A DNA stretch of 64,000 nt from Bacillota bacterium. GTDB taxonomy: Bacteria; Bacillota_I; Bacilli_A; RF39; UBA660. Shown here piece after piece: positions 11,018 to 58,428 of this stretch (the stretch's first letter is position 1; the number at the start of each line of letters is the position of its first letter). The DNA is taken from contig JAEYYH010000006.1 of assembly GCA_023430885.1 (NCBI GenBank), positions 5,615 to 69,614 of the forward strand. Direction: 5' to 3'. The notes beneath the pieces were generated by a model. That model ran no database searches and had not been told where the DNA came from. It saw only the letters and a list, made by a program, of their open reading frames with translations. Made by a program: the position numbers and the translations under genes.

Positions 11018-12448
11018 ATGAAAAATAAAAACGGTTTTACCTTAGTAGAAATATTAGGTGTCATTACAATTTTAAGTGTGCTTGCTTTAATAGCAATACC
11101 AACTATAGATAATATTGTAACTAAAAATAGAGAAAAACTATATGATTCACAAATTGAAACAATTGAAGATGGATTAAAAACATGGGCTGATGCTAATGCA
11201 ATGTATCTTCCAGAAGATGGAGATGACGGACTGTTATTATCACTTGGTATATTAAAATTATCAGGATTTGTAGATGAAGATATTAAAAATCCAAATACAA
11301 ATTTATGTTTTTCAAATAATATGATGGTTTCTATAGTGACCGTAAAAGAAGGATATGCATATTATGTTGACGAAGAAAGTGGACTTGATGGCACAGAAGA
11401 AGATTGCTCTACGCCTACAGTATCAGATTTTATATATTTAAAGGGCAGCAGTACTGTTACGTTGAATTTAAATGATACTTATGAGGAACCTGGATATATA
11501 ACTTTTGATTCTAATGGTAATATGGCAGCGGGTACTGTAACAAGTTTGATTAAGGATAGAAACGGAACTGTTGTAAGTTCTATTGATACTACTGAAAGTA
11601 GTAAAACACCATATACAATTACTTATACTTATGGTTCAGCTACAAGCATAAGAACAATTAATGTTTTAATTGCTGATCCTGTTGGGACAATATATGCTTT
11701 CGATTATATTGATCATGTTCAAATAATGACATTAAAAAGAGGAACATATAAACTTGAAGTATGGGGACCTAATGGTAGTGGTGTATATGGAGGAAAAGGT
11801 GGCTATTCTGCAGGAAATTTAACATTAGAAAATGACACTCAATTATATATTTATACTGGAGGAAGTAATGGATATAATGGCGGTGGTAGTCCAAATAATC
11901 CGGTAGGTCCTGCAAACGGTGGCGGCGGCGCTACGGATATTAGAATAGCCACAGACAGTCTTTATGCTAGAGTTATTGTTGCAGGTGGCGGTGGCGGTGG
12001 CGGACAATCCTCTGGAAATGGAGGCGTTGGTGGCGGGTTAACTGGTGCTAATGGTAGCGGTGGCGCAAATGGTGGATCACAAATTTTAGGTGGAAGTTCT
12101 ACATACTGTGGGACAACTGGAAAAGGTGGTTTTGGATCAGGCGGTTCTAGCGTTAGTTGTACTACAGCTGGTGGCGGTTCTGGCGGCGGCGGTTGGTATG
12201 GAGGTTCAACTGATTATTCAAACTATGGCGGTGGCGGCGGATCAGGCTGGATTTATACTGAAACTGCTTTTACTACATGGCAAACAGGAAATGGATCAGA
12301 TTCTGCAAACTGGCTTCTTAATAGTTCATACTATTTAGCTAATGCACAAACCATAGCGGGAAATGGAACAATGCCAACTCATGATGGTACTGGTACTATG
12401 ACAGGTAATAGTGGAAATGGTTATGTTAAAATAACGAAGATTAGTTAA
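11018..12448 (+). CDS. Prepilin-type (class III signal) protein with a glycine-rich C-terminal region
   Basis: The leader is MKNKNG|FTLVEILGV, with Phe at +1 and Glu at +5. The C-terminal half contains Gly-rich tracts (GGGGGGGQSSGNGGVGGG...). It is a paralog of the next gene. Confidence 0.8.
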   Translation: MKNKNGFTLVEILGVITILSVLALIAIPTIDNIVTKNREKLYDSQIETIEDGLKTWADANAMYLPEDGDDGLLLSLGILKLSGFVDEDIKNPNTNLCFSNNMMVSIVTVKEGYAYYVDEESGLDGTEEDCSTPTVSDFIYLKGSSTVTLNLNDTYEEPGYITFDSNGNMAAGTVTSLIKDRNGTVVSSIDTTESSKTPYTITYTYGSATSIRTINVLIADPVGTIYAFDYIDHVQIMTLKRGTYKLEVWGPNGSGVYGGKGGYSAGNLTLENDTQLYIYTGGSNGYNGGGSPNNPVGPANGGGGATDIRIATDSLYARVIVAGGGGGGGQSSGNGGVGGGLTGANGSGGANGGSQILGGSSTYCGTTGKGGFGSGGSSVSCTTAGGGSGGGGWYGGSTDYSNYGGGGGSGWIYTETAFTTWQTGNGSDSANWLLNSSYYLANAQTIAGNGTMPTHDGTGTMTGNSGNGYVKITKIS

Positions 12449-12471
12449 GAGATAGAAATATCTCTTTTTTA
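12448..12471 (+). terminator. Rho-independent terminator
   Basis: agagata-gaaa-tatctct followed by T6. Confidence 0.65.
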
Positions 12472-12510
12472 TTATTCTATTAAATGATATAATTATTATA
12501 GGTGAATAGT

Positions 12511-14004
12511 ATGAAAAATAAAAAAGGTTTTACCTTAGTAGAAATATTAGGTGTTATTACAATTCTGAGTGTACTTGCGTTGATTGCAATACCAACTATA
12601 GATAATATAGTAACCAAGAATAGAGAAAAACTATATGATTCACAAATCAAAACAATTGAAGATGGATTAAAAACATGGGCTGATGCTAATGCAATGTATC
12701 TTCCAGAAGATGGAGATGACGGACTGTTATTATCACTTGGTATATTAAAATTAGCTGGATTTGTAGATGAAGATATAAAAAATCCTAATACAAATTTATG
12801 TTTTTCAAATGATATGATGGTTTCTATTGCAGCAGTAAAAGAGGGCTATACGTATTATATTGATGAAGAAAGTGGACTTGATGGTACAGAAGAAGATTGC
12901 TCTGTACCTACAGCAACCGATTTTATATATTTAAAAGGTAGTAGTACTATTAACTTATCATTGGATAGTTCTTATGAAGAACCAGGTTATTTAGCCTTAA
13001 ATAGTAGTGGAAATATAGTAACATCTCAAGTTACTACTTTAATAAGAGATAAAAATAGTCAAATAGTAAGCTCTATAGATACAAGTGAGGATACGGCATC
13101 ACCTTATACAATAACATATACTATTGGTGAAGTGTCAAAGACTCGTACTATTATAGTCAAAATAGGTGATCCTGTGGGTACTATATATACCTTTGATTAT
13201 ACAGGAACTAAACAAACAATTACTTTAGGGAAAGGCAGTTACAAATTAGAAACTTGGGGTGCTCAGGGGGGAAAAAGCACATATTCTAATACTAATATTT
13301 GGTTAGGGGGATATGGTGGTTATTCAAAAGGAGAATTAACTTTTGGAGTAGATACTGTTTTCAATATATATGTAGGTGGTGCAGGAGCGGATAAACAAAC
13401 ACTATCAACTATATTAGGTGGATTCAATGGTGGTGGAAATAGTGGAACAAGTACATCATCATATCCAAATATAGGTGCAGCTGGTGGTGGTGCCTCAGAT
13501 ATTAGAATGAATGGCGAAGAACTTTCTAACAGAATAATTGTAGCAGGTGGCGGTGGTGGTGCTGGCTATGGTTCAAATGCTGGCACAGTTGCTAGTCCTG
13601 AAATAAATTCTGGTGGTCCAGGTGGTGGAAGTACTGGTTTAAGTGGAATATATTATCCTGGATATCAATTGCGTATGGGAGCACCAGGAACTCAATCAGC
13701 CGGTGGCGCTGGTGGAACTGGAGGCTCATCAACTAATGGAAATCCAGGAATCTTAGGTCAAGGTGGTGCAGGAGCAAATGGTACTGCTGGTGGTGGCGGC
13801 GGTGGCGGCGGTTATTATGGCGGCGGCGGCGGTGCTAATGGTAGCGGTTGCGCAGGTCCGGGTGGCGGTGGTTCTGGATATATTGGAACTTTAACTAATG
13901 CTCAAACCATAGCGGGAAATGGAACAATGCCAACTCATGATGGGACTAGTACTATGACAGGTAATAGTGGCAATGGTTATGTTAAAATAACAAAGATAGC
14001 TTAA
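12511..14004 (+). CDS. Prepilin-type protein with a glycine-rich region (tandem paralog)
   Basis: Leader MKNKKG|FTLVEILGV. The first roughly 130 aa and the last roughly 35 aa are near-identical to the 11018 gene. The middle is a divergent Gly-rich tract. Confidence 0.8.
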   Translation: MKNKKGFTLVEILGVITILSVLALIAIPTIDNIVTKNREKLYDSQIKTIEDGLKTWADANAMYLPEDGDDGLLLSLGILKLAGFVDEDIKNPNTNLCFSNDMMVSIAAVKEGYTYYIDEESGLDGTEEDCSVPTATDFIYLKGSSTINLSLDSSYEEPGYLALNSSGNIVTSQVTTLIRDKNSQIVSSIDTSEDTASPYTITYTIGEVSKTRTIIVKIGDPVGTIYTFDYTGTKQTITLGKGSYKLETWGAQGGKSTYSNTNIWLGGYGGYSKGELTFGVDTVFNIYVGGAGADKQTLSTILGGFNGGGNSGTSTSSYPNIGAAGGGASDIRMNGEELSNRIIVAGGGGGAGYGSNAGTVASPEINSGGPGGGSTGLSGIYYPGYQLRMGAPGTQSAGGAGGTGGSSTNGNPGILGQGGAGANGTAGGGGGGGGYYGGGGGANGSGCAGPGGGGSGYIGTLTNAQTIAGNGTMPTHDGTSTMTGNSGNGYVKITKIA

Positions 14005-14026
14005 GAGATAGAAATATCTCTTTTTA
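14004..14026 (+). terminator. Rho-independent terminator (duplicated with the gene)
   Basis: The same agagata-gaaa-tatctct hairpin is present, followed by T5. Confidence 0.6.
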
Positions 14027-14066
14027 ATTTTACTAATAAATGCTATAATTAATATAGGTGAAGTAT

Positions 14067-14429
14067 ATGAAAAATAAAAAAGGATTTACATTAATAGAAA
14101 TAATAGCAGTTATTGTTTTAATAGCAGTTATATCTTTAATAGTCTTTGTAAGTGTTACTGCTATGATAAAAAACAATAAGGTTAAACAACTAAAAGTATT
14201 TAGTGATAATTTAACTAATGCAGCAGAAGTTTATATGACTGATAAAAAAGATGCTTTTTCTAATTTTGATGAAGTGGGTGATATAACTATTATTAGTTCA
14301 TCTGAAATGATAAATGCCGGTTACATAAATAAAAATATGGATAATCCTACTGGAAAAGACCTAACTGATTTTTATGTAAAAGCAACAATTAAGGAAGATA
14401 AATCTATTTCTTATGAAGTTGTAGGATAA
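14067..14429 (+). CDS. Small prepilin-type pilin/pseudopilin
   Basis: Leader MKNKKG|FTLIEIIAV. At 120 aa it has the size of a minor pilin or ComGC-like protein. Confidence 0.8.
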   Translation: MKNKKGFTLIEIIAVIVLIAVISLIVFVSVTAMIKNNKVKQLKVFSDNLTNAAEVYMTDKKDAFSNFDEVGDITIISSSEMINAGYINKNMDNPTGKDLTDFYVKATIKEDKSISYEVVG

Positions 14430-14513
14430 GTACTATGTCAAATAGTGCTTTTTTCTTGCACCAAACCATTAAAAAATGTATAATGTTTATAGAATACAAT
14501 AAGGAGACAAATA

Positions 14514-15698: not shown

Positions 15699-15706
15699 GT
15701 GATATT

Positions 15707-23637: not shown

Positions 23638-24741
23638 ATGAAAAAAAGAGGTTTTACATTAATAGAATTACTGGCAGTAATTTTAATCCTTGGTATAATT
23701 GCATTAATTGCAATACCTATAGTAAATAAAATAATAAAAGAAAGTAGAAGAGGTGCATTTGAAACAACTGCAAATAATATAGTAGGTGCGATAGAAGATG
23801 CATGCCAGCTTCAAGTTTTAAAGGGTGAAACGATAACAACAAGTTATAACTTTGCAAATGGTATAGTAACACCAGCCCTAAATGTCAAAGGAAAATTACC
23901 AACAACTGGAAAAGTAACTGTTAATGGTGATTGCGACATAACACTTAATGTAAATAATGGGGTATATTCAGCAACAAAAGAATACGATGAAGAAAATGTT
24001 ACAATAGTAGACGGTGTAGTTCCGCTTTCATATTCAGTATATGCTAATGGAACAGCAGTATATTTTAATCCAGAAACAGGAACAAGATGTACAGCCGGAG
24101 AAGCTGTAAGTACAACAGGAACAAAAACAGGATGTATGAAATGGTATGCATTTAATGATAGTGGTGGAAGTGAAGCCCCTACAATTAATTTAATTTTAGA
24201 TCATAATACAACTGCTGTAGTAGCATGGAATTCTACAGGAAGTAATGTAAGTGGTCCAACAAATGTTATGACGCAACTTGTATCTGATACTAGTTCATGG
24301 GCAGGAGTACCTACAAGATCTGATAATTATAATGTAAGTAATGGAACATCAACTTATACAATAAATTATAGTACATATAAAGCTAGGCTAATGACAGCAG
24401 CAGAGGTGGCTGCAATATCAAGTAATTCTAGTTTTGCAGAAGCAACAACATCATATACAAACTGGTTTTATTTAGATAGTAATAATCAAACACAAACTGC
24501 AACATCAACTGGAGCAAGTAGTTATGATTGGTTATTTGATTATACAAATGGCTGTGCTAGTTACGGATGTAATGTAGCAGATGCAAGTACTTATGGATAC
24601 TGGACATCTACATCTGTTTCAGGTAATAATAGTCGCACTTGGTTTGTTGGTAGAGGCGGCTACTTAGACAATCTTGATGTAGTTTATGGAGATAGATATG
24701 GTATCCGTCCAGTTATAACTGTGTCAAAAAACAAACTATAA
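23638..24741 (+). CDS. Prepilin-type protein with a DUF1566/lectin-like C-terminal domain
   Basis: Leader MKKRG|FTLIELLAV. The C-terminus YWTSTS...TWFVGRGGYLDNLDVVYGDRYGIRPVITV fits the DUF1566 / Fib_succ_major pattern as recalled. Confidence 0.75.
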   Translation: MKKRGFTLIELLAVILILGIIALIAIPIVNKIIKESRRGAFETTANNIVGAIEDACQLQVLKGETITTSYNFANGIVTPALNVKGKLPTTGKVTVNGDCDITLNVNNGVYSATKEYDEENVTIVDGVVPLSYSVYANGTAVYFNPETGTRCTAGEAVSTTGTKTGCMKWYAFNDSGGSEAPTINLILDHNTTAVVAWNSTGSNVSGPTNVMTQLVSDTSSWAGVPTRSDNYNVSNGTSTYTINYSTYKARLMTAAEVAAISSNSSFAEATTSYTNWFYLDSNNQTQTATSTGASSYDWLFDYTNGCASYGCNVADASTYGYWTSTSVSGNNSRTWFVGRGGYLDNLDVVYGDRYGIRPVITVSKNKL

Positions 24742-25677: not shown

Positions 25678-27048
25678 ATGATAAATATAAAAGCAGATTC
25701 AAGAAAAGTGAAAAATGGAGACATATTTGTAGCTCTTCGTGGTTTTAATAGTGATGGTCATGAATATATTGAAAAGGCTGTAGCTCTTGGTGCTTCTAAA
25801 CTTATTGTTATGGATGAAGGTAATTATCCTATTCCTTATGAAGTAGTACCAGATACAAGAGTATATTTAACAAATTATCTTAAAGAGAACTATGGTAAAT
25901 ATTTAGAAGAGATGAACATAGTGGGTTTTACCGGAACAAATGGAAAAACAACAAGTGCATATCTTTTATATGACGCATTAAATAAACTTGGTATTAAATG
26001 TGGATATATAGGCACAGTAGGACTTTATTTAAAGCAGGGAAAGGTAAGTGACTTACCTAACACTAGTCCAGATATTTGTGACATGTATGACATGATGATG
26101 GCGGCGTATGATGCTGGATATCGTAATATGGCTATTGAAGTTAGTAGTCAAGGTCTTGTTAGAGGTAGATTAGATACTATACCATTTAAATATGCTATAT
26201 TTACAAACTTAACTCAGGATCACTTAGATGAACATAAAACAATGGAAAATTATGCTAAAGCAAAAAGTTTATTATTTGATATGCTTACTAGTGAAGGTAT
26301 AAGTATAATTAATTATGACGATAAATATAAGGATTATTTTAAATCAAAATACACTGTTTATTATGGATTAAATGGTGGTGATTATAAAGTAACTGATACT
26401 ATTTATCATAATCAAGGAACAACTTTTAATTACATTCATAATGGAGAAGTTACAACTATAAATTCACCTCTTTTAGGGGAATATAACATATATAATCTAT
26501 TGAGTGTCATAGTAGTTTTAGAAAATATGACTATTCCAAAAGATAATATTGTAAAAGTTATTACTAAACTTACTTGTCCTCCAGGAAGAATGGATATAAT
26601 TAAATATAATACAAATAGTATTATTGTTGATTATGCTCATACACCAGACGCTATAGATAAAATTTTATCCACAGTAAAAAAAATAAAACATGATAATATA
26701 TACATAGTATTTGGGTGTACTGGAAGCCGTGATAGAACAAAAAGACCAATCATGATGAAATTAGTTACAGATAACTGTAAATATGCAGTAGTAACTATGG
26801 ATGATCCTCATGAAGAAGATCCTATGCATGTTGTTGAAGATATGCTAGAAGGAAATATTAATAGCAATTATGAAGTTATAATAGACAGAGGGAAAGCAAT
26901 AGAAAAGGGAATATCTTTATTAAATAATAATGATATATTATTAATACTTGGAAAAGGACATGAAGAATTTATTGTAATGAAGGATAATAAGATTCCTTTT
27001 AATGATAAAAATAAAGTAAACGAAGTATTAGATAAAATATCGGTTTAA
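25678..27048 (+). CDS. murE: UDP-MurNAc-tripeptide synthetase MurE paralog 1 (non-DNPR variant)
   Basis: The Mur ligase motifs GFTGTNGKTT and DYAHTPDA are present. The specificity motif is DDPH (TMDDPHEEDP) instead of DNPR. Confidence 0.85.
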   Translation: MINIKADSRKVKNGDIFVALRGFNSDGHEYIEKAVALGASKLIVMDEGNYPIPYEVVPDTRVYLTNYLKENYGKYLEEMNIVGFTGTNGKTTSAYLLYDALNKLGIKCGYIGTVGLYLKQGKVSDLPNTSPDICDMYDMMMAAYDAGYRNMAIEVSSQGLVRGRLDTIPFKYAIFTNLTQDHLDEHKTMENYAKAKSLLFDMLTSEGISIINYDDKYKDYFKSKYTVYYGLNGGDYKVTDTIYHNQGTTFNYIHNGEVTTINSPLLGEYNIYNLLSVIVVLENMTIPKDNIVKVITKLTCPPGRMDIIKYNTNSIIVDYAHTPDAIDKILSTVKKIKHDNIYIVFGCTGSRDRTKRPIMMKLVTDNCKYAVVTMDDPHEEDPMHVVEDMLEGNINSNYEVIIDRGKAIEKGISLLNNNDILLILGKGHEEFIVMKDNKIPFNDKNKVNEVLDKISV

Positions 27049-27090: not shown

Positions 27091-28410
27091 TTGAACATAA
27101 AAATAGATTCGAGAAAGGTAGTAGATGGTGATATTTTCGTAGCTTTAGGCAAAGGTCACGAATATGTAGAAGAAGCTATCAATAATGGTGCTACTAAAGT
27201 AGTTGTAGAACACGGAAAATATTCAGTAGATACTTTGGTTGTTAAAGACACAAAAAAATATTTAATTAAATATTTAAAAGATAATTATTATAAGGAAATA
27301 AGTAATTTAAAATTAATAGGTATAACGGGAACAAATGGTAAAACAACAAGTGCATATTTAATATACCAGGCTCTAAATAAAGTTGGTATTAAATGTGGTT
27401 ATATAGGTACGATTGGTTTTTATTTAGATGGTAAAGTAGAAACTTTAAACAATACTACTCCAGAAATTTTAGATATATATGATATGCTTATAACTTGTCA
27501 AAATCAAGGTTGTAAAGTAGTAGTTATGGAAGTAAGTAGTCATGCTCTTGATATGAAAAGAGTTGATGGCTTGTTATTTGATTATGCAATATTTACTAAT
27601 TTAACAGAAGATCATTTGGATTACCATAAAAGTATAAAAAAATATTTTAAGGCCAAATTAAAACTATTTAAGAAATTAAAACCAACAGGTAAAGCTATTA
27701 TTAATGTTGATGATAAATATGGCAGAAAAATCAAAACTAAAAATTTAATAACTATAAGTTCATATAGTGGAGATTATTTAATTGAAGATTACGTATTTAG
27801 TGATAAAACTAAATTCATAGTAAATAATAATAAGTATGAGATGACGTTACTAGGGATATATAATATTTATAACATGCTTAATGCAATAGTTATATTAGAT
27901 GAATTTAACGTTAAAAATAAATATAAAATTGTAAAAAAATTATCTGCGCCGCCCGGAAGAATGCAAATAATTAATTATAAAAGTAACAAGATTATTGTTG
28001 ATTATGCTCATACTCCGGACGCTGTAGAAAATATATTAAAAAGTGTAAAAGACTTTGCTAAATCAAAAATTTATGTTATTATTGGTTGTGGCGGCAATAG
28101 GGATAGGTTTAAAAGACCTATTATGGCCAGAATTGCCACAAACTTATCAGATTATGTGATATTAACTAGTGATAATCCTAGGGATGAAGATCCAGATATG
28201 ATAATAGATGATATGATAAAAGGAATAGAAAAAGACAATTATCAAATAATTGTAAACCGTAGTGAAGCTATTCAAAATGGAGTGCAATTACTAAAAAATA
28301 ATGATATACTATTATTGCTTGGTAAAGGACATGAAACTTACCAAATAATAGGGAAAGAAAAAATTTATTTTGACGATAAAAACGAAGTAGAGAAATGTAT
28401 TAGGAGATGA
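27091..28410 (+). CDS. murE: UDP-MurNAc-L-Ala-D-Glu:meso-DAP ligase MurE paralog 2 (DNPR type)
   Basis: GITGTNGKTT and DYAHTPDA are present together with the canonical DNPR motif (TSDNPRDEDP). TTG start. Confidence 0.85.
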   Translation: MNIKIDSRKVVDGDIFVALGKGHEYVEEAINNGATKVVVEHGKYSVDTLVVKDTKKYLIKYLKDNYYKEISNLKLIGITGTNGKTTSAYLIYQALNKVGIKCGYIGTIGFYLDGKVETLNNTTPEILDIYDMLITCQNQGCKVVVMEVSSHALDMKRVDGLLFDYAIFTNLTEDHLDYHKSIKKYFKAKLKLFKKLKPTGKAIINVDDKYGRKIKTKNLITISSYSGDYLIEDYVFSDKTKFIVNNNKYEMTLLGIYNIYNMLNAIVILDEFNVKNKYKIVKKLSAPPGRMQIINYKSNKIIVDYAHTPDAVENILKSVKDFAKSKIYVIIGCGGNRDRFKRPIMARIATNLSDYVILTSDNPRDEDPDMIIDDMIKGIEKDNYQIIVNRSEAIQNGVQLLKNNDILLLLGKGHETYQIIGKEKIYFDDKNEVEKCIRR

Positions 28411-29480: not shown

Positions 29481-31568
29481 ATGAAGAATAAAGGTTTTAC
29501 ATTAATTGAACTACTAGCAGTAGTTATGGTACTGGGGATTATAGCTATTATTGCGGTTCCTTCTATTAACGGTTTACTTGATAAAAGTAAAAAAGACACA
29601 TTGTTTGCAACAGCAAATAATTTAGTAGATACAGCTAAACAGTATTATATGAATAATGTACTTGTGAATGATGGATTAGCTAGCCCTGTATCACTTAGTG
29701 TTACAGATAGTGCTAATATGGATCTACTTGATTATAGTGGCAAATTACCATCAAGTGGCTATATATTAGTGGATACTTCTGGTAATATAGGTATAGCCGT
29801 ATCACAGGGTGATTACTGCGCAACAAAAGAGTTGTGGAATGATGAAGTGGTTGTTTCATCTCGTTCTAACTGTGAAATAACAAGTGTAGAAAAACTGGAA
29901 GAAATCAATAATTCTTGCTTTATATTAAATGATGAGAAAAATACTATAGTTGATTATAAAATAACTGATACTAATTGTCCTAAGGATATAGTTATTCCGG
30001 CTGAAATAGGTGGTCATGAAATTGTCGCTATCGGTGATGGTGCTTTTGCAGGAAATGGTCAACTAGCTGGATTATACGCTAAAGATTTAGACTCAGAACC
30101 TTATTTTGACATAGTTGAAAACGCATCATTTTATAAATATGGCCCTTTTGAAATGTTGGTTATTAATCCTGATATTATAACTACAAAAAGATGCTATTTT
30201 AAATATTCACCAGGTTACGATACTGTTCCATTAGATTATGTGTTAACTTCTAGTGATCCATATTCAGGATGTAATATAAGAGGCGCATTTATGGCGGCAG
30301 TCACTGATGATGCACCTGTAAATATTAATAATAATGTTACTCTAGCTGGAGCAGGAAATGGTCTTAATAACACTATGTCTCTTCTTCCAAACCAAAATAC
30401 AAACAATGACATAGGTATGCAGCAAATAGCTATGATTGAGAATCCAATGGTTCAATCTTATGGTATAACAAGTGTTAATTTTAGTTTAGCAACTAATTTA
30501 ACTTCAATAGGGACAGGAGCATTCTTAAGAAATAATTTAACATCTATTACATTTTCAAGTAATAATGCAAATATTTCTAATATAGGAGCAGGAGCTTTTT
30601 CTAGTAATAGGATAACGGGGACATTAGATTTAAGTGATTTGTCTAGCTTGAAAAATATATTGCCTCAAACTTTTAGTGGAAATATCATAACAAATGTAAT
30701 TTTTCCTTTAGGATTAGAAAATATCGGTGATTTTGCATTTTCTGAAAATAGTATGACATCTTTATCATTACCAACTTCAATAAGAACAATTGGTCTAGTA
30801 GCTTTTGAAGAAAATAATCTAGAGAGTTTAGACTTTTCAACTTTACCAAACTTAACATCCATTAGCGATTATGCATTTGGTGAAAATGCATTAACAACAG
30901 TTAAATTACCTAGTTCACTTACTACAATAGGCGAAGAGACTTTTGGTGATAATTTATCTTTATCAACAATTTCTATTGAAAATGAATATAACGCTATAGC
31001 TGGTGCACCTTGGGGAGCTTCTTCTGCTACAGTTGTTTGGACATTAGCATCAAAATACAGTATATCTTATAGTGGAAGTGAAGCTACAATAGGAAATAGT
31101 TGTTTGAGTGATGGTAATTATTTTGAGCACTGCATTGTCAACTTAAATTCAGTAGATAATAGTAAAACAATTGCTGGTTTTAAATTAAATGGAGCGACAG
31201 TTTATGGAAACACATTTGAAATGCCTGGATATAATGTAACAATCACGGATATTATTTTGACAGATTATGTTATATTGGAAAGTAGTCATCCATATTCCGA
31301 CAGTATGGATCAAACTTATACAGCGACAATACCTGAAGCGACAAAAATAAGGGTTGAATTTAGCGCTGATGTATCGTTAGAAAGTGATTATGATTACATA
31401 TATATTACAGATGCACTAGGAAATCAAGTAGGAGATTCCAGCTATACAGGTACAACATTAGCTAATCAAATATTTACTATAGATGGTAATGTTGTAAATA
31501 TTAGATTAACTACAGACGGCTCGGTTACCGAATATGGTTTCTTAGCTAAAGTAGTTATTGCAGAATAA
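29481..31568 (+). CDS. Large prepilin-type protein with BspA-type LRRs and a C-terminal CUB-like domain
   Basis: Leader MKNKG|FTLIELLAV follows a GGAGG RBS. The middle has repeated ~23-aa (ns)Lt(st)(iv)x(il)Pxs(il)xxIGxxAFxxN units. The last ~190 aa are homologous to the C-terminus of the 55978 gene. Confidence 0.8.
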   Translation: MKNKGFTLIELLAVVMVLGIIAIIAVPSINGLLDKSKKDTLFATANNLVDTAKQYYMNNVLVNDGLASPVSLSVTDSANMDLLDYSGKLPSSGYILVDTSGNIGIAVSQGDYCATKELWNDEVVVSSRSNCEITSVEKLEEINNSCFILNDEKNTIVDYKITDTNCPKDIVIPAEIGGHEIVAIGDGAFAGNGQLAGLYAKDLDSEPYFDIVENASFYKYGPFEMLVINPDIITTKRCYFKYSPGYDTVPLDYVLTSSDPYSGCNIRGAFMAAVTDDAPVNINNNVTLAGAGNGLNNTMSLLPNQNTNNDIGMQQIAMIENPMVQSYGITSVNFSLATNLTSIGTGAFLRNNLTSITFSSNNANISNIGAGAFSSNRITGTLDLSDLSSLKNILPQTFSGNIITNVIFPLGLENIGDFAFSENSMTSLSLPTSIRTIGLVAFEENNLESLDFSTLPNLTSISDYAFGENALTTVKLPSSLTTIGEETFGDNLSLSTISIENEYNAIAGAPWGASSATVVWTLASKYSISYSGSEATIGNSCLSDGNYFEHCIVNLNSVDNSKTIAGFKLNGATVYGNTFEMPGYNVTITDIILTDYVILESSHPYSDSMDQTYTATIPEATKIRVEFSADVSLESDYDYIYITDALGNQVGDSSYTGTTLANQIFTIDGNVVNIRLTTDGSVTEYGFLAKVVIAE

Positions 31569-43253: not shown

Positions 43254-45110
43254 ATGAAAGAAAGAAACGGTTTCACATTAGTTGAATTGTTAGGAGTATT
43301 AGTATTGCTTGCGGTAATAGGAGTAATTACAATTCCTACAATTAGTAGAATAATATCTAATTCAAAAGCAAAAGCCATCAAAGCCCAAGAACAAACTATA
43401 ATGAATGCAGCAAAGAGTTGGGGAGCTGATAACGTAGAACAACTACCTAAAAAAGGTTTTGTATTAGTTGCAATTCAAGATTTAATCAGCACTAATTATA
43501 TTGCTGACGATACCATCGATGATATAGACGATTCAACATATTCTACAATGTGTGTAAAAATAAGGGCAAACACTAAATATAGTACATATGATTATGATAT
43601 AACAGAATGTACTGATAATATAAATGAAGATTGTTTTTCATATAGTGTTAGTGGTAACAGTGGAGATTTGTATGCCAGTATAACTGGTTATACCTTTGAT
43701 GATACTAATGTTTGTTCAATGGATGTTACTATACCTGCTACATTAGGTGGATATCCTGTAAAATATATTAATAATTCTTCTTTTTATAATACTAGCAATT
43801 CTAACAAAATAACAAGTGTTGATTTTTCAAATGTTCCTGATTTAATTGGTATAGGTTATGATTCTTTTAGAGAACAAAATCTTTCTACACTAGATTTAAG
43901 TATGCTAGATGATTTATCATATATTGGCTCAAATGCCTTTCGCCAGAATTTGCTTACAACAGTTACTTTAAGTAAAAATCTAGTAACAATATATGGTGGA
44001 GCATTTCAGTACAATAACATATCGTCTATTAGTTTTCCTAATTCATTAAAAGTAATACAGGGAGCGGCTTTTTATGGGAATAATATAACAGGGGTTTTAG
44101 ATTTAAGTAATACTAGTTTAACTGATTTAGGTTCATTTACTACAACAGAAGGTCTTTATAATATTGGCCCTTTTCAAGATAATAATATAACAAGTGTAGT
44201 ATTACCAAATACTTTGAAAATGATAGGCGATGGTGTTTTTACTCAAAATTTTCTTACTCAAGTTAATATTCCATCGAATGTTGAAATGATAGGCAGATTT
44301 GCTTTTGCTGGGAATGCAATAACAAATGAACTGGTTTTTCCAAGCACGCTAAAGGAAATAAGATGGAAAGCTTTTTCTACCGCAATAAGTGGCGGGAAAG
44401 TTAATTTTACTAATGCTAGTTCACTTACTGTGATTGAAGACTCGGCATTTTATGGTAATACTTTAAATAATGGTGTATTAGATTTCAGTCTTGCATCTTC
44501 ATTAACGTCAATAGTAAAGAATGCCTTTAGAGAAACTGCTATATCATCAGCTGACTTTTCAGGTTTATCCAGTTTAAAAACTGTTGGATTAGCAGCATTT
44601 TTAAATTGTCACATTCCGGGAGTGTTAAACTTATCTAATTCTTTATTGTTACAGGATATAGGTGAAGTAAGTCCAACTGGAACATATTATGGGCCTTTTC
44701 AAAATAATAACTTTACTTCTATAATTCTTCCAGATGTCGCATATCGACTAAATGATAATGCTTTCTCATATAATTTACTTCAGGATATTAATTTTGGAAC
44801 GAAGATAACAAGAATAGGCAAATACGCTTTATCACATAATAGTTTTACTAGTTTGACAATACCAGGGTCAGTTATAGATATATATGATTATGCTCTTTCT
44901 TATAATAGTTTAACAAATATTGTACTAAGTTTAGGTGTTTCAAATATAAACTATAGAGCATTTTATAAAATGTCGACTTCAAATCCTAATTTAACGGTAA
45001 TTACTAATTCTACAGGCAAATCATATAATTGGTATAACTTAACAAGTGTTGGTTCTACTGCAACTTGTAGTTTTATAAAAGGGACTTGTAGTACGATAAC
45101 AATAAATTAA
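43254..45110 (+). CDS. Large prepilin-type protein with BspA-type leucine-rich repeats
   Basis: Leader MKERNG|FTLVELLGV. It has more than 12 tandem LRR units (e.g. LDLSNTSLTDLGS..., VVLPNTLKMIGDGVF). Confidence 0.8.
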   Translation: MKERNGFTLVELLGVLVLLAVIGVITIPTISRIISNSKAKAIKAQEQTIMNAAKSWGADNVEQLPKKGFVLVAIQDLISTNYIADDTIDDIDDSTYSTMCVKIRANTKYSTYDYDITECTDNINEDCFSYSVSGNSGDLYASITGYTFDDTNVCSMDVTIPATLGGYPVKYINNSSFYNTSNSNKITSVDFSNVPDLIGIGYDSFREQNLSTLDLSMLDDLSYIGSNAFRQNLLTTVTLSKNLVTIYGGAFQYNNISSISFPNSLKVIQGAAFYGNNITGVLDLSNTSLTDLGSFTTTEGLYNIGPFQDNNITSVVLPNTLKMIGDGVFTQNFLTQVNIPSNVEMIGRFAFAGNAITNELVFPSTLKEIRWKAFSTAISGGKVNFTNASSLTVIEDSAFYGNTLNNGVLDFSLASSLTSIVKNAFRETAISSADFSGLSSLKTVGLAAFLNCHIPGVLNLSNSLLLQDIGEVSPTGTYYGPFQNNNFTSIILPDVAYRLNDNAFSYNLLQDINFGTKITRIGKYALSHNSFTSLTIPGSVIDIYDYALSYNSLTNIVLSLGVSNINYRAFYKMSTSNPNLTVITNSTGKSYNWYNLTSVGSTATCSFIKGTCSTITIN

Positions 45111-45179: not shown

Positions 45180-46022
45180 TTAGAACCCCATTTCAGTTTT
45201 GTACTGGATTGGGGTTTTATAGTTTAAAGAATAAGCTAATCTTTCATTATTATAATAATCTATGTATGTTCTTATAAATTCATCAAATGATGAATAACTA
45301 TCAATGTCGAAATCACTTTGAATTTCATCTTTTATCCAACCGTTGATCGATTCCATTTTTGGATTATCTGTTGGAGTTCCAGCTCGCGACATTGAACGAA
45401 TTATGTTATAATCTTTATGTGCGTTTGTAAACGCCATTGAAGAGTAGACTACACCCTGATCACTATGCAAGGTTGAAGGGTAATCTATTCTTTTTATTTT
45501 GTCTAAATACGGAAATAATCCATCATAATATGGTTTTATTGAATTGTGTTTATTTGTATAACCATATGAAATTATTTCATTATTAAATGCATCCAAATAT
45601 AAAGCTGTATCATAAAGTTCTGTACGATATTTAATACATGTCATATCTGTACATACTTTTTCTAATGGTTTAGTTGCTTTCCAATTATTTTTAATAATAT
45701 TTGAATACAAAATATGCTCTTGTCCAGGGTTTTTATATTTGTAACTTCTTACTGCTGATTTAATGTTTAAATACTTACAGCATTTATGGACTAGATTATC
45801 TGAAATGAGCCATCCTATATCTTTTCTTATCTGCCTATTTATGTGTCTATATCCCCATGATTTATGCTTTGTATGATATTCATTAACTAATAAACATAAT
45901 TGTTCTCTGTCTAATTGGTATTGTCTTTTTATGTCTTTGTTATTTAACCATTTATAATAACCACTCCTTGATACTTCCATATATACACATAAAGATTTTA
46001 TATTAAATTCTAATTTTAGCAT
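45180..46022 (-). CDS. IS3-family transposase OrfB (DDE integrase core)
   Basis: 280 aa with an rve-type catalytic region (HSDQGVVYSS ... ESINGWIKDE). Confidence 0.8.
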   Translation of the reverse strand: MLKLEFNIKSLCVYMEVSRSGYYKWLNNKDIKRQYQLDREQLCLLVNEYHTKHKSWGYRHINRQIRKDIGWLISDNLVHKCCKYLNIKSAVRSYKYKNPGQEHILYSNIIKNNWKATKPLEKVCTDMTCIKYRTELYDTALYLDAFNNEIISYGYTNKHNSIKPYYDGLFPYLDKIKRIDYPSTLHSDQGVVYSSMAFTNAHKDYNIIRSMSRAGTPTDNPKMESINGWIKDEIQSDFDIDSYSSFDEFIRTYIDYYNNERLAYSLNYKTPIQYKTEMGF

Positions 46023-46027
46023 ATTAA

Positions 46028-46408
46028 CTATTTCATATTCTTCTTCGATAAATTTATGAATTGTTTTTCTAGACCAACTCCTTTCACCGTGTAACCTTTT
46101 TTTAATCTTTCATTCTCCACTCTTAATTTCATAAGTTCATATTGTAATTCTTCAATATCTGTTCGATTCTTTTTTCTGTTTAGACCGCCATATGGAGAAC
46201 CCGGCTTCTTCTTATTAATTAATCCTTCTTCTCCTTGTTCAATATATTTTTTTATCCATAAATGTGCTTGTCCCGGATTAATTCCTTCTTCTTTTGAAAT
46301 AATGCTTAAGCTATTTTCTTGATTCATGATTCTTTTTACTATTCTTAATTTTTCTTCTTTCGACCAATATTTATTATCTCTAGTTGCTTTACCTTTAGTT
46401 CTTCCCAT
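46028..46408 (-). CDS. IS3-family transposase OrfA (HTH)
   Basis: 126 aa with a helix-turn-helix followed by a leucine-zipper-like region. It ends just upstream of orfB in the -1 frame arrangement. Confidence 0.8.
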   Translation of the reverse strand: MGRTKGKATRDNKYWSKEEKLRIVKRIMNQENSLSIISKEEGINPGQAHLWIKKYIEQGEEGLINKKKPGSPYGGLNRKKNRTDIEELQYELMKLRVENERLKKGYTVKGVGLEKQFINLSKKNMK

Positions 46409-52821: not shown

Positions 52822-52836
52822 TTCTTAGGTGATGTT

Positions 52837-53702: not shown

Positions 53703-53732
53703 AAAGGGAGTGTAAAACTCTCTTTTTTTTGT
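53703..53732 (+). terminator. Rho-independent terminator
   Basis: gagtg-taaaa-ctctc followed by T8. Confidence 0.55.
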
Positions 53733-53758
53733 TATAATGTTATAAAGTAGGTGTTTTA

Positions 53759-55981
53759 GTGAAAGATAAGTTTATAGCAATTTTAAAAAGTAATTATTTA
53801 AAAGTGTTCTTTTTATCATTATTAGTAGGCTTAATAATGTTATTACCAAATATTATTAAGAATAAAGGTTTGCTTCTTTTATCTGGTGATTTTCAAACAC
53901 AACAAATAGCGTTCAATATAAATGTAAATGATGAGTTTAAAAGCGGTAATACTCTTTATACTTTAAATAACGATTTAGGTTCATCAATTATTGAAGGATA
54001 TAGTTTTTATGATATTGGAAGTCCTTTCTTTTTAATAGGCCTTATTTTTCCAAATAGCTGGTATCCTTATTTAATAAGTATTCTTTTAATTTTAAAATAT
54101 GCTTTTACTGGCTTATTTGCTTATATATACTTTACAGATTTTGTAAAGAGAAAAGAATTAGCAATATTAGGAGCATTGTTATATACATTTTCGGGATTTC
54201 AAATATTCAATATGCTTTTCTTCCACTATCATGAATTAGTAATGTTATTTCCTTTATTTTTATATAGTATCGATAAACTATTTAAGGAAAATAAAAAAGG
54301 ATTATTTGCAATAATTCTTGGATTAACTATTCTTTTCAATTATGTTTTTGCTTTTGCAGAATTGATCTTTTTAATTATATATTTAATAGTTAATGGAATA
54401 TGTAAAAGATTTAAATATAACTGGAAGAATATAAGAATGTTCTTATTTGAATTGATTGTAGGAACAGGTTTAGCAATGTGCATTCTAATTCCATCACTTA
54501 TATCAATATTTAGTAATCCAAGGGTAGGCAATACCATTGATATAAAAGAATATTTTTTATACCCATTTACTCAGTATATAAAAATATTTCAGTCACTATT
54601 ATTACCAACAGACATAATAAATAAAGCCAGCCTAATCAATAACACTAATTGGTCAGCATGTGAAATGTGGATACCATTTTTCGGAATTTTATTAGCCTGT
54701 GTATATATAATTAAAAATAGAAAAGATTACTTATCTGTACTTGTTATTACGTTATTAATATTTATGTTTATTCCATTACTAAATAGTTCTTTTACAATGT
54801 TTAATACTCAGTATTATGCAAGATGGTTTTTTATTCCATCCATATTTATAGCTATAATGACTATTAAAGTTTTAGATGATAGATTAGAATTAAAAAAAGG
54901 AATACTTTTATTCAAGATATTCTGGGAAGTATATATTATATTTGCTATTATATATATTTTATACATAGTCAAGACATTTAAAATAGTAGATTATTACTAT
55001 ATGTTTAGCATTTTTTTATCACTACTAAGTATACTTGTCGCAATATTTTTAATAAAAAAATATTACAAAACTGATAAAATTATGATACTAATTATACCAG
55101 TAATAATATGTATTTTATTAGAAGGATATCATTATATTTATTATCAATCTAAACATGATTTAGAATATAAAGAAAATAAATTATATATAAACGCTATAAA
55201 CAATGATTTGATAAAAGATGATGAATTTTATAGAGTTAAGTATTTAGGATGCATGTATAATATTAACCTATATTTTAATGAATCATCAGTTGATTCATTT
55301 AATAGTTCAGTAGCTCCATCAGTATTTAAACTATATGGTTCGCTAGGTCTTAATAGAAAACAAAATACTTCTCTAGGTTTACAGTATCAAGAATTACTTA
55401 ATTTATTTAGTACAAAATATATAGTTTCATGTAATTCAAGTGATTTAACTAAATATGGATATAAGTATCTATATAAGAAGGGTGACTATACAGTTTATTT
55501 AAACGAACAATATAAAGATATGGGAGTTATCTTTAATAATGTTATTACAAGTGAAGAATTCAATAATTTAGATACTATATTAGAAAAAACTAAAGTGTAT
55601 TCTGATAGTTATATTATTAATGATAAATCAAAAATTATTATTAATAATAGTAAAGTATTAAGTTCATATTCTAAAAAAATAAGTAATGGCTTATATAGTG
55701 AATTAGAAATTAGTGATGATGCTACTGTAGTTTATACAATTCCATATGATAAAGATTTTACTATTAATGTAAACAATATAAAGACAGATTATTTTGAAAT
55801 CAACAATGGTTTAATAGGTGTAAATCTAGCAAAAGGCAACAATAAAGTTAGTATTATATACAATGGAACCGATTTTAAAAAAGGGTTACTTATTGGTGTA
55901 ATAAGCTTTATATTATTAATTTTTTATTGTAAAAAAAAGGGGAATAATGTTATTATTAACATAATAGGTGGTAATAAATGA
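53759..55981 (+). CDS. YfhO-family polytopic membrane protein (glycosyltransferase-associated)
   Basis: 740 aa with more than 12 TM helices and an extracytoplasmic C-terminal domain. The GTG start is inferred. Confidence 0.6.
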   Translation: MKDKFIAILKSNYLKVFFLSLLVGLIMLLPNIIKNKGLLLLSGDFQTQQIAFNINVNDEFKSGNTLYTLNNDLGSSIIEGYSFYDIGSPFFLIGLIFPNSWYPYLISILLILKYAFTGLFAYIYFTDFVKRKELAILGALLYTFSGFQIFNMLFFHYHELVMLFPLFLYSIDKLFKENKKGLFAIILGLTILFNYVFAFAELIFLIIYLIVNGICKRFKYNWKNIRMFLFELIVGTGLAMCILIPSLISIFSNPRVGNTIDIKEYFLYPFTQYIKIFQSLLLPTDIINKASLINNTNWSACEMWIPFFGILLACVYIIKNRKDYLSVLVITLLIFMFIPLLNSSFTMFNTQYYARWFFIPSIFIAIMTIKVLDDRLELKKGILLFKIFWEVYIIFAIIYILYIVKTFKIVDYYYMFSIFLSLLSILVAIFLIKKYYKTDKIMILIIPVIICILLEGYHYIYYQSKHDLEYKENKLYINAINNDLIKDDEFYRVKYLGCMYNINLYFNESSVDSFNSSVAPSVFKLYGSLGLNRKQNTSLGLQYQELLNLFSTKYIVSCNSSDLTKYGYKYLYKKGDYTVYLNEQYKDMGVIFNNVITSEEFNNLDTILEKTKVYSDSYIINDKSKIIINNSKVLSSYSKKISNGLYSELEISDDATVVYTIPYDKDFTINVNNIKTDYFEINNGLIGVNLAKGNNKVSIIYNGTDFKKGLLIGVISFILLIFYCKKKGNNVIINIIGGNK

Positions 55982-58428
55982 AAGAAATTTATAGAGTAGT
56001 AGAAAATAAGAAAACAGGTTTTACTTTAATAGAACTTTTAGCAGTTATCCTTATTTTAGCAATTATTGCTTTAATTGCAATTCCAGCAGTAACTAAGATT
56101 GTTGAGGAAGCTAAAAAGCAATCGTTTAAAGTTACTGCAACCAATGTAGTAGATGCTGCGGATAAGGATTGCAACATATTATTACAGCAAGGTGAAAGTG
56201 TTGCTAAAAGTTACACAATATCTGATTATGAGATAACTAATGGGCAAAATCTTTCTATATCAGGTAAGCTTCCTCTACAAGGGAGTGTTGCCGTTAATAA
56301 TACTTGTGATGTAGCAATAGCTGTTAATAATAAAAAATGGTGTGCAACAAAGAATTATACTGATGATAAAGTAACACTATCTGAATACGTTGATGGCAAC
56401 TGTAATTATAGTGGCGATGGTGGTAATACTGGCGGAGACTTACTTGTTGATAAGATACAAGAACTAAGAGGTTCTGAGCTTACGGCAGGAGTAAATCTTG
56501 GAACTGATGAGTATGATCTTGCAATATCATCAAATGGTTCAACTGTTGGGTATTACACTGATAAATCATTTACTGGTTCTAATCCAAACAATTATATAAC
56601 AGTTGATGGAAAAGAATTTAGAATTTTATCATTAACTAGTCAAGGTATTACAGTAGTTGGTGATGCAGATGGTTATATAACAGATGAAGGATATGGCAGT
56701 ACCAGTATATCTGCAAGATTTTATAATAATTTTAATATATTAGGATTAGTAAGACTTGCAAATTTCTTTACTTCAGTTAGAAGTGGAAGTTCAAATAGTT
56801 TTGATGATAGTGATGGTTTCAAAATTGACTATGGCAAATGGGGTAGCGGAGAAGTTACTGATTCGTACTCAATGTTATCATTCTATGACTATGAACAAGC
56901 AATTAATAGAAATAACTATGCTAGTTGTTTAAAAAATAGTAGTGCAGGTGATGCAAGAACAGCATTTACTGATTGCGCACAACCAAGCTGGCTTGGTAAT
57001 AATGTATATTTAAATATAGGATTTTACTTTTATGGTACAGGAGCCGTGTCACCAGGATACTTAGATAATGGTAAATTTGCAATAGCCGATTCTTACGGAA
57101 ACGGTGATGATGGTGTATGTACGGATTGTACGAAAAAATTTAAAGTACTTGTAAGAAATGATTCATATTATGTATCAGGAACAGGTACGAAGGCAGATCC
57201 TTTTATATATGAATCCGCATACGATCCAGGTAATTTTTCACAAGATAGCTGTTATTTATTAGATGGAACAGGCAGTGTTATTCAAGCATTTGATAATTCT
57301 AATACTGATTGTTCAAAAAATATAACAATACCGGCGAGTATAAATGGCAAACCAATAACTGAAATTGCACCATATGCATTTCAAAATTCAAGTATTTCTT
57401 ATGTGGATTTCAGTAAAGCAACTAATTTAGTAAGCATAGGTGAATCTGCTTTTGCTGGTAATGTAATATCTGAACCAATAACGTTACCACAAAATATTAC
57501 CCAAATAGAGAATGGCGTATTTGCAAATAATGCTATTTCAGGGGAGCTTATTATACCAAGTAAAATAACTAGTATTGGGGTTAATGCCTTTGCTTCCAAT
57601 GAAATAGAAACATTAACTTTTGCAAGTGGAAGTGCACTTACAAATATTGGCTGGCAAGCTTTTTCAGAAAATTATAGTTTAGCAGGCACTGTTGATTTAC
57701 CAGCAACAATTACATCTATGGATGATAGTGTGTTCTGTTGGACAAATATAAGTACATTAAATATACCTAATGGTGTAAGTGGACTTTCGAGTGGAGCACT
57801 TAATTGTACTGATAATTTAAATACAATTAATGTAGACCAATTATACAATGGTTTAGATAATTATCCTTGGGGAAATTCTACTGCTACTATTAACTGGCTT
57901 AGAGCAGTAACTTATAGTTTAACTTATGATAATGGTCAGGTAGCAATGAATAATGCTTGTCTTAAAAGTGGTAATTATATAGGAAATTGTACTGTTACTA
58001 TTAGTTCTAGTCAAGTTGGTTATAAACTCGTTAGTTATAAGTTAAATGGTGTATCAATGACTTCAAATACATTTGTTATGCCAAACGAAAATGCTACTAT
58101 AACTGATATAGTTTTAGCACAGGGATATACTTTGGAGAGTGCTCATCCATATTCAGATAATATGGATCAAACCTATACGGCAACAGTTCCAGGTGCCACT
58201 AAAATACAAGTGACATTTGACGACTCAACTTTTGTTGAAAACGGTTATGATAAAATATATCTGACTGATGGTACAGGAACTCAAGTAGGAACGTCAAGTT
58301 ATTACACAAGTTCTGGTTTAGCAAATAAGGTATTTATAGTAAATGGTAATACTATAAATGTTAGATTGACTTCTGATAGTAGTGCAACCTATTATGGATT
58401 CAAAGCAGAAATAGTAAAATATCAATAA
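55978..58428 (+). CDS. Large prepilin-type protein with BspA-type LRRs and a C-terminal CUB-like domain
   Basis: Leader MKEIYRVVENKKTG|FTLIELLAV. LRR units lie in the middle. The last ~190 aa are homologous to the 29481 gene (HPYSDNMDQTYTAT...YGFKAEIV). Confidence 0.8.
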   Translation: MKEIYRVVENKKTGFTLIELLAVILILAIIALIAIPAVTKIVEEAKKQSFKVTATNVVDAADKDCNILLQQGESVAKSYTISDYEITNGQNLSISGKLPLQGSVAVNNTCDVAIAVNNKKWCATKNYTDDKVTLSEYVDGNCNYSGDGGNTGGDLLVDKIQELRGSELTAGVNLGTDEYDLAISSNGSTVGYYTDKSFTGSNPNNYITVDGKEFRILSLTSQGITVVGDADGYITDEGYGSTSISARFYNNFNILGLVRLANFFTSVRSGSSNSFDDSDGFKIDYGKWGSGEVTDSYSMLSFYDYEQAINRNNYASCLKNSSAGDARTAFTDCAQPSWLGNNVYLNIGFYFYGTGAVSPGYLDNGKFAIADSYGNGDDGVCTDCTKKFKVLVRNDSYYVSGTGTKADPFIYESAYDPGNFSQDSCYLLDGTGSVIQAFDNSNTDCSKNITIPASINGKPITEIAPYAFQNSSISYVDFSKATNLVSIGESAFAGNVISEPITLPQNITQIENGVFANNAISGELIIPSKITSIGVNAFASNEIETLTFASGSALTNIGWQAFSENYSLAGTVDLPATITSMDDSVFCWTNISTLNIPNGVSGLSSGALNCTDNLNTINVDQLYNGLDNYPWGNSTATINWLRAVTYSLTYDNGQVAMNNACLKSGNYIGNCTVTISSSQVGYKLVSYKLNGVSMTSNTFVMPNENATITDIVLAQGYTLESAHPYSDNMDQTYTATVPGATKIQVTFDDSTFVENGYDKIYLTDGTGTQVGTSSYYTSSGLANKVFIVNGNTINVRLTSDSSATYYGFKAEIVKYQ

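Follow-up and report, generated by a model that had tools for sequence, protein, structure and literature searches.

Eight dispersed prepilin genes predict a diversifying set of modular type IV pilins in an uncultured Bacillota lineage

The eight genes designated here A to H are dispersed over a window of 64,000 nucleotides (nt), the whole stretch of DNA analysed, which belongs to a Bacillota bacterium of the GTDB lineage Bacilli_A, RF39, UBA660 (assembly GCA_023430885.1, contig JAEYYH010000006.1, positions 5,615 to 69,614 of the forward strand). On the basis of their sequences, these genes can be regarded as encoding genuine prepilin-type proteins, six of them being large fusions. The explanation that we consider probable is that A to H are type IV pilins processed by PilD and assembled by a machine encoded elsewhere, F and/or C forming the shaft and the six large proteins being displayed as diversifying binders. 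A PilD-family prepilin peptidase would cut each precursor after the leader glycine and methylate the phenylalanine at +1, and the hydrophobic helix bearing Glu5 would hold the subunits in the membrane. Their polymerisation into a type IV filament crossing the wall would then be the work of a PilC platform and a PilB-type ATPase whose genes lie outside the window. The body of this filament would be made of the small pilins, and A, B, D, E, G and H would be modular pilins, in which a pilin carrier is joined to a glycine-rich, leucine-rich-repeat (LRR), CUB-like or DUF6273-like effector. Being too bulky to fit in the shaft, the modular pilins would most likely be exposed on the filament tip, or else on short fibres, where they would act as alternative ligand binders or adhesins. 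Processing and assembly into filaments are predicted, as are, by analogy, incorporation at the tip and adhesion, and the tip or cap display already suggested in the original prediction corresponds to the model proposed previously for such proteins.

All eight genes lie on the plus strand, and translation showed intact open reading frames (ORFs) from the 5' positions at which they had been predicted: A (11018-12448, 476 amino acids (aa), leader MKNKNG), B (12511-14004, 497 aa, MKNKKG), C (14067-14429, 120 aa, MKNKKG), D (23638-24741, 367 aa, MKKRG), E (29481-31568, 695 aa, MKNKG), F (36072-36530, 152 aa, MKKNG), G (43254-45110, 618 aa, MKERNG) and H (55978-58428, 816 aa, with the 14-residue leader MKEIYRVVENKKTG). 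The leaders, 5 to 14 residues long, contain K or R and end in Gly at -1; in 8/8 proteins FTL(I/V)E comes next and leads into a hydrophobic stretch of about 20 residues. Every protein scores above the cut-offs of both Pfam N_methyl (PF07963; 22.2-32.0 bits for a cut-off of 21.2) and TIGR02532 (17.8-33.4 bits for a cut-off of 16.3). Six-frame motif scans of the window, strict and loose, recovered the same eight genes and no further real one, a GLTVIE internal to a glycosyltransferase being a spurious match that is found in many loci of relatives about 1.2 kb upstream of spo0A. The leader motif, observed eight times, did not occur in any of 200 first-order Markov simulations of the window. Cleavage and N-methylation of A to H by an A24 prepilin peptidase are predicted. 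The eight genes amount to 11,247 nt, or 17.6% of the window, close to the 18% announced, and only C and F have, as predicted, the size of ordinary pilins, the other six ranging from 367 to 816 aa. Their pilin modules are of two types, one found in A, B, C and G and the other in D, E, F and H, with Cys pairs placed at the end of the module, and Glu5 is kept in all of them.

The first three genes are clustered between gap and pgk. In A, the pilin module (class III signal MKNKNG/FTLVE, approximately aa 1-135, with a Cys97-Cys130 pair) is separated by a weak immunoglobulin-like (Ig-like) region (aa 139-216) from a glycine-rich domain (GRD), ALK_LTK_GRD (PF12810, cut-off 24.5 bits), at aa 237-474 (nt 11726-12439; 136.1 bits, E 3e-39, profile positions 3-242/243). 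B is a tandem paralogue of A, in which the weak Ig-like stretch is also present, the same glycine-rich domain is found at aa 235-495 (nt 13213-13995; 122.1 bits, E 5e-35, profile positions 1-242/243) and the last ~35 aa are identical to those of A. The two genes form a mosaic, their pilin modules being 90-98% identical and their effector parts 25-55%. The spacer between A and B (12449-12510, plus strand, 62 nt) contains the hairpin GAGATAGAAATATCTC with its T run, followed by TATAAT and by AGGTG as ribosome-binding site; a nearly exact copy stands between B and C (14005-14066), and the two copies share 83% identity when the spacer is taken together with the last 150 nt of A/B. C is a small pilin devoid of Cys, located directly upstream of pgk, where most relatives also have a small pilin; aligned end to end with the small pilins found after PilD in relatives, it shows 28-34% identity. 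A separate ORF of 53 aa with 8 Cys (10791-10952, plus strand) lies between the gap terminator and A, and this gene is also called in the independent contigs L002-L004 (loci and flanks are cited here by L numbers).

LRR_5 (PF13306, cut-off 27.7 bits) is found in three of the large prepilins, with scores of 89.9 bits in E (2e-25), 180.0 in G (2e-53) and 101.2 in H (5e-29). E comprises its pilin module, a region without domain match (aa ~131-333), an LRR_5 array whose best stretch is at aa 392-506 and a CUB-like segment at aa 603-689 (nt 31287-31547), while G combines a pilin module of the A/B/C type with three LRR_5 stretches. In H, a pilin module of the D/E/F type is followed by a middle domain of 281 aa (nt 56428-57270), an LRR_5 array (best stretch aa 443-568), an Ig-like spacer and a CUB-like C-terminus at aa 723-811 (nt 58144-58410). 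The CUB assignment (PF00431, gathering score 21.4 bits) is marginal, with 21.5 bits for the whole E protein and 25.1 for its C-terminus alone, and 20.9 and 23.1 bits respectively for H, even if the match spans profile positions 19-109/110 in both proteins; E and H are 39% identical over LRR and CUB. The BspA-type LRR arrays, glycine-rich tracts and CUB-like domain announced on the large prepilins were thus all recovered, as LRR_5 in E, G and H, GRD in A and B, and a marginal CUB in E and H. The LRR region of H matches solved LRR_5-type proteins (PDB 4gt6, 4fdw and 6mlx) and its N-terminus matches PilE1 of Streptococcus sanguinis (8pfb). Its middle domain gave no Pfam match and only chance-level matches to PDB sequences, and the AlphaFold2 model built from a 9-sequence alignment is unusable (mean predicted local distance difference test score, pLDDT, 32.7). 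Orthologues of H form seven clusters of 809-828 aa that are 60-81% identical, the same-species variants P0121-P0125 keep the full length and are identical in length, and the gene is found in its yfhO–pyk context in independent assemblies. A frameshift artefact is ruled out by orthologues of the same length, and the C-terminal extensions, whose artefactual origin had been named beforehand as a reason to abandon the idea, are consequently real: these architectures recur at the same length in independent assemblies and species. Dozens more proteins combining N_methyl and LRR_5 are present in metagenomes.

The case of D is less direct. Its pilin module (aa 1-130) precedes a C-terminal module of 237 aa (nt 24028-24738), and this segment, aa 131-367, has no direct Pfam match even at E<=5 and only chance-level matches to PDB sequences. 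An exhaustive HMMER search collected the module in 1,242 representative clusters at E<=1e-3, of which 283 at E<=1e-30. When D and its 88 top homologues were aligned, N_methyl was found in 64/89, a weak DUF6273 (PF19789) in 19/89 (best E 2.5e-6) and Lcl_C (PF07603) in 3/89; in other proteins the module is also found free of N_methyl and repeated in tandem. Since the DUF6273 and Lcl_C matches are obtained through homologues only, the DUF1566/lectin-like label given to this tail stands as a distant affinity and not as a membership. The AlphaFold2 model of D, computed from a 2-sequence alignment, shows a helix at 8-61 (a 54-residue alpha1) and then strands at modest confidence (pLDDT 45-80), but with a mean pLDDT of 38.9 it is unusable as a whole. 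No relationship between the tail of D and the middle domain of H was detected by hhalign.

Among the eight proteins, F is the strongest candidate for the role of major pilin forming the filament, as judged from its similarities. This protein with 4 Cys matches the solved major type IV pilins 1oqw (aa 6-111, E 4e-5), 8tum and 3sok, overall across aa 6-129, and it is this alignment over more than 100 residues that designates F as the best shaft candidate. Its gene is preceded by a promoter-like TTGACT-17-TATACT and has terminator hairpins on both sides. It is located directly upstream of hrcA, in the order valS–F–hrcA–grpE–dnaK, and the corresponding order in L101, L178, L180 and L181 is PilD–pilin(126-128 aa)–hrcA–grpE–dnaK–dnaJ. 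From this comparison, F appears to occupy the position of the PilD-adjacent pilin, with a synteny breakpoint just upstream.

The repertoire is dense and its members change quickly. Prepilin genes reach 12.5 per 100 kb in the window, for a mean of 4.1 in 80 Spo0A-centred loci of relatives; in Gram-positive bacteria the baseline, drawn from 38 genomes, is 217 candidate pilins, only 57 of which are encoded away from machinery operons (PMC3244431), and the density is indeed, as first estimated, far above a normal Firmicute complement. The pattern is repeated on a 959-kb contig of a relative, where four prepilin genes are grouped within 22 kb and another two lie apart. The same chromosomal slots are used repeatedly: one to three prepilins of 90-562 aa separate gap from pgk in most relatives (loci L012-L091; window 10746-14513), and other recurring positions are those downstream of spo0A and of mraY, upstream of hrcA, and in the dnaJ–trmB and yfhO–pyk intervals. 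In the metagenome-assembled genomes (MAGs) JAEWBI01 and JAEWOE01, of the same genus, the housekeeping neighbours are 82-96% identical to those of the window, whereas the syntenic pilins are only 54-62% identical. This is the case for the counterpart of B in the near relative (L012/L013), with 54%, for that of E after mraY (L013), with 61%, and for the orthologue of H in GCA_023391185.1, with 62%, when pyk and GH31 reach 93% and 90%. The same comparison shows A/B as a single copy in the relative, D missing there (from the clpB-ylmH slot of L013), and an extra pilin found in the relative only, downstream of leuS and after a metallo-beta-lactamase gene. The dnaJ–trmB slot of G is occupied in L182/L183, of the same genus, by a different LRR_5 pilin (P0012, 545 aa) that is ~28% identical. 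In relatives, 44 further large prepilins carry GRD (9), Laminin_G_3 (6), Ig-like (6), LRR_5, sialidase-N or beta-helix modules, and fusions of N_methyl to GH18, GH16 and Glug also occur. The carrier/effector mosaic and the fast turnover fit what would be expected of surface-exposed ligand binders, and the repertoire is presumably kept diverse by duplication, by divergence of the modules and by replacements in a small set of conserved slots of the chromosome.

Terminators, made of a hairpin and a T run, were recognised by eye upstream of A, B, C, D, E and F and downstream of A, B, C, D, F and H, G being without one on either side; an automated pattern fails to detect these hairpins, which are poor in GC. 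A consensus promoter scan returned 124 sites for 128 expected, which is uninformative in this AT-rich window, and was not used as evidence. The ATG of H overlaps the stop codon of yfhO (ATGA), and H is therefore probably co-transcribed with yfhO. The proposal of a promoter and a terminator for each gene can thus be retained for most of them, which are single units, but not for H, without a promoter of its own, nor for G, without a flanking terminator. In the same way, the scattering between core genes is verified except for the dnaJ/sspI location proposed for G, which is followed by an IS3 transposase and trmB, and not by sspI.

The neighbourhood of these genes calls for a few additional observations. 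The element directly 3' of G (45180-46408, minus strand) is a two-ORF transposase of the IS3 family, in the place of which L182/L183 have an ORF of 100 aa. The yfhO gene (53759-55981) is 68% identical to its orthologue of the same genus when the flanking genes are 82-93% identical, and appears therefore to diverge almost as fast as the adjoining pilin H; a functional link between the two, such as glycosylation, would be pure speculation. Two tandem murE-like paralogues (25678-27048 and 27091-28410, plus strand) are found upstream of mraY, an arrangement also present in L013. Finally, T-box leaders (Rfam RF00230) were detected on the plus strand at 32442-32651 (124 bits), upstream of an HD-domain gene and valS, and at 62408-62603 (118 bits), upstream of a small membrane protein followed by leuS in the flank L008.

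The window has a GC content of ~28% and contains spo0A, and genes for small acid-soluble spore proteins are present in its upstream flank, which together indicate a spore-forming host. All the relatives identified by Spo0A among GTDB species genomes are uncultured MAGs, labelled Bacilli, Bacillota, 'Tenericutes', 'Mollicutes', UBA660, UBA5348 or Ca. Fimihabitans, the last being placed by NCBI in Mycoplasmatota incertae sedis; one relative is a complete chromosome of 1.49 Mb. As stated in the original prediction, assembly genes are absent from the window, in which tblastn with the PilB, PilC and PilD of the lineage, two machinery-linked minor pilins and TadA gave no match; none of these is present either in the 10-kb flanks on each side. 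The lineage as a whole does, according to the gene content of its genomes, have an assembly system, which consists of PilC and PilD, with PilB in a sister clade. A succession of PilC (T2SSF), PilD (A24_N_bact and Peptidase_A24) and a small pilin is located downstream of dnaG-sigA-trmK in L092-L101, in L178-L186 and in most of 80 metagenome loci (these came from a PilC scan, and further look-ups added more), and PilC and PilD are retained in every relative examined at this sigA-trmK locus. PilD homologues are abundant under the name 'prepilin peptidase [Bacilli bacterium]'. The lack of a prepilin peptidase, which had been put forward as an argument that would tell against the idea, does not apply to the relatives, where PilD is present, even if none was found for the species of the window; the further PilD/PilC matches whose context was inspected are all in other species.

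The location of this machinery echoes that of the prepilins. In GCA_012837765.1 (L069/L092), the order dnaG–sigA–trmK–yqfQ–PilC–PilD–pilin–pilin lies directly upstream of pgk, so that pgk is preceded in L092 by the machinery cluster, after trmK/yqfQ and not gap, whereas in the window A, B and C stand between gap and pgk. The cluster abuts hrcA in L101, L178 and L180, where the window has F, and modular pilins are found in the same loci as the machinery in L092, L095, L132, L157 and L180. The PilC of this lineage is atypical, with 650-992 aa instead of the usual ~400 (L095:8033-9988, L092:7940-9991, P0259-P0378), the N-terminal extension of 200-550 aa being hydrophobic, Lys-rich/basic and repeat-like, without Pfam match. 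In ~27 loci of the sister clade, PilD is followed by a convergent gene for a PilB/GspE-type ATPase with Walker A, GEIRD and tetracysteine motifs, the copies sharing 67-82% identity. The best scores of the ATPase and of the platform of the lineage are obtained with GspE/PilB and GspF/PilC respectively, and not with ComGA/ComGB. The genes of two atypical minor pilins of 168 and 186 aa (…RGFMLVE and …NGFTTVE; L113:13799-14835) lie next to PilB and are transcribed divergently from it in this clade, and the window contains no counterpart of them. A DUF2207_C protein and a 595-aa DUF87/HerA-like ATPase following PilC–PilD–pilin (L095:11169-13978, L096, L097) were considered as an alternative motor; the pair is missing at other loci and was rejected as a feature of the lineage, being seen in one species. 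Separately, a Tad-like ATPase (TadA/CpaF type) and a TadB-like platform are found a few kb downstream of PilC/PilD in L158 (14372-17247) and L173, and point to a second type IV filament system in those genomes.

Several of these data weigh against type IV pili assembled by a machine located elsewhere. PilB, PilC and PilD were not found for the species of the window, over the window and its 10-kb flanks. The ATPase is documented only in the sister clade, and there is no PilB within 10 kb of PilC-PilD in the relatives whose type of PilC, with the long N-terminal extension, makes them the closest to the window. Neither PilM/N/O nor PilT was encountered, and, as Glu5 is present in 8/8 prepilins, none of them resembles a tip nucleator devoid of Glu5.

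The competing explanation that survives best, which we consider unlikely, is that the pilin leader serves for display without true pili, in membrane-anchored form or in short assemblies comparable to pseudopili or bindosomes that would hold lectins, LRR adhesins and glycoside hydrolases. It would account for the very large number of dispersed prepilin genes and for a cargo so varied as to include the enzymes GH18 and GH16, and also for the atypical extension of PilC and the fact that PilM/N/O and PilT were not seen; precedents exist in the Bas system of Sulfolobus (PMC3047682) and in the 41-100 N_methyl proteins of Planctomycetes (PMC8567305). No sortase (H…TLxTC…R) or LPXTG sorting signal was found by regular expression in 2.57 Mb of lineage DNA (the window and L001-L181), which goes in the same direction but is weak evidence, as these loci are syntenic and redundant. 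This explanation is difficult to reconcile with the resemblance of F to a conventional major pilin, with the PilB-type polymerisation ATPase and minor pilins of the sister clade, and with the thick wall to be crossed, murE and mraY being present. Moreover, the conservation of Glu5 and of full pilin modules is needed for the packing of a filament and not for mere anchoring.

It is much less probable still that the eight genes are orphan relics, left to decay or to be repurposed after a rearrangement that put valS in the place of PilC-PilD upstream of F. The synteny breakpoint does lie exactly between the expected position of pilD and F, the window contains an IS3 element, and the machinery was not found for its species within the limits given above. 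Decaying genes would nevertheless hardly remain intact in 8/8 cases, over up to 816 codons, in DNA of 28% GC where stop codons readily appear; their leaders, Glu5 residues and ribosome-binding sites are fully preserved, the variants P0121-P0125 from the same species are full length, and PilC-PilD is present at sigA-trmK in every relative examined. As for ordinary ComG or type II secretion system (T2SS) pseudopilins with artefactual C-terminal extensions, this possibility can practically be discarded: the weak NCBIfam matches to ComGC/D/E and GspG/H that would suggest it are limited to the N-terminal helix and far below the equivalog cut-offs (best 21-31 bits for cut-offs of 49-80 with ComGC/D/E/F/G, NF040999, NF040982, NF041013 and NF041002; 16-29 bits for cut-offs of 44-89 with GspG/H/I, TIGR01710, TIGR01708 and TIGR01707), full-length architectures recur in independent assemblies and species, and the ATPase and platform of the lineage are best classified as GspE/PilB and GspF/PilC.

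Modular type IV pilins assembled by a distant machine thus remain the preferred explanation, and it gives a testable role, that of pilus-presented adhesins or ligand binders, to a block of hypothetical surface proteins. The host lineage is a widespread uncultured gut group, routinely mislabelled as Tenericutes or Mollicutes, in which A to H become candidate determinants of attachment to host, mucus or particles. As these pilins diverge much faster than the surrounding genome, they may also serve as strain-level markers. The carrier and effector design, worked out in one streptococcus, would here be scaled to a repertoire with fast turnover in a very small genome. Two uncharacterised modules deserve attention, namely the tail of D (1,242 clusters, mostly fused to pilins) and the conserved 281-aa middle domain of H, and the atypical PilC constitutes a target for structural work. 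A bolder extension, to be taken as tentative and more doubtful than probable, is that the pilin module is the general surface-display vehicle of the lineage, in which tens of cargos per ~1.5-Mb genome would be served by one minimal machine (extended PilC, unlinked ATPase) in replacement of sortase and LPXTG, with cassettes exchanged between slots. If true, the cargo would range from lectins and adhesins of the LRR and glycine-rich kinds to glycoside hydrolases, and the exchange slots would be gap–pgk, the regions downstream of spo0A and of mraY, pilD/hrcA, dnaJ–trmB and yfhO–pyk.

A literature search on the pili of this lineage, or on fusions between pilins and BspA/LRR domains, returned nothing specific, and the comparison must be made with systems known in other organisms. 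The Com pilus pilins (ComGC-GG) and GspG-K share with the window genes the N-terminal prepilin motif and the dependence on an A24 peptidase, but differ in size and in C-terminal modules, and the window genes do not belong to a comG- or gsp-type operon. In the bindosome of Sulfolobus solfataricus, sugar-binding proteins with a class III signal are assembled by the Bas system (PMC3047682); this system is archaeal, its cargo consists of substrate-binding proteins of ABC transporters, it relies on a dedicated Bas ATPase and membrane proteins, and it has no sequence relationship with the genes described here. The N_methyl–SBP_bac_10 (DUF1559) family of Planctomycetes, with at least 41 members per genome and 100 in T. 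immobilis, spread around the chromosome (PMC8567305), is similar in that many prepilin-leader genes are dispersed outside pilus operons, but the host is a diderm of the Planctomycetes–Verrucomicrobia–Chlamydiae group, a single cargo is dominant and neither adhesin-type modules nor slot-wise replacement are in evidence.

The closest relationship is with the modular pilins, defined by N_methyl (IPR012902) and an extra domain that is not specific for type IV pili. A, B, D, E, G and H correspond to this definition, C and F being non-modular. For what follows, we take IPR026906 to be LRR_5 and IPR011460 to be DUF1566/Lcl_C. More than 1,200 modular type IV pilins in 264 architectures have been catalogued by Raynaud et al. 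(2021, PMC8179133), whose Dataset S1 includes IPR012902–IPR026906 (18+6 proteins), IPR012902–PF12810 (2+1) and IPR012902–IPR011460 (7+2). These are the same combinations as in E, G and H (LRR_5), in A and B (GRD) and, loosely, in D, which fails the Lcl_C model directly; they are given as counts, without functional or genomic analysis. The repertoire had not been recognised as a described system, and the claim that it is undescribed is not supported, the class being that of the modular type IV pilins in which LRR_5, GRD and DUF1566 fusions are already tabulated (PMC8179133). Two members have been characterised experimentally in S. sanguinis, PilB (pilin and vWA) and PilC (pilin and lectin) (PMC8179133; Shahin et al. 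2023, PMC9934059). Like the window genes, they combine a class III signal and a small pilin module with a linker and a bulky module that is not specific for pili; both hosts are monoderms, tip display and adhesion are predicted in both cases, and the Laminin_G_3/ConA-like lectin module of the S. sanguinis type also exists in relatives of the window organism. The difference lies in the organisation, with two genes inside the pil machinery locus of S. sanguinis and six in 64 kb of the window, away from the machinery and in variable housekeeping slots, as well as in the modules (GRD, LRR_5 with CUB, DUF6273-like), in the retention of Glu5 by all of them and in the fact that they are known from sequence alone. 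This repertoire is accordingly a further set of modular type IV pilins, whose density, chromosomal slots and turnover, together with the atypical PilC, deserve notice without pointing, as far as present evidence goes, to a new mechanism.

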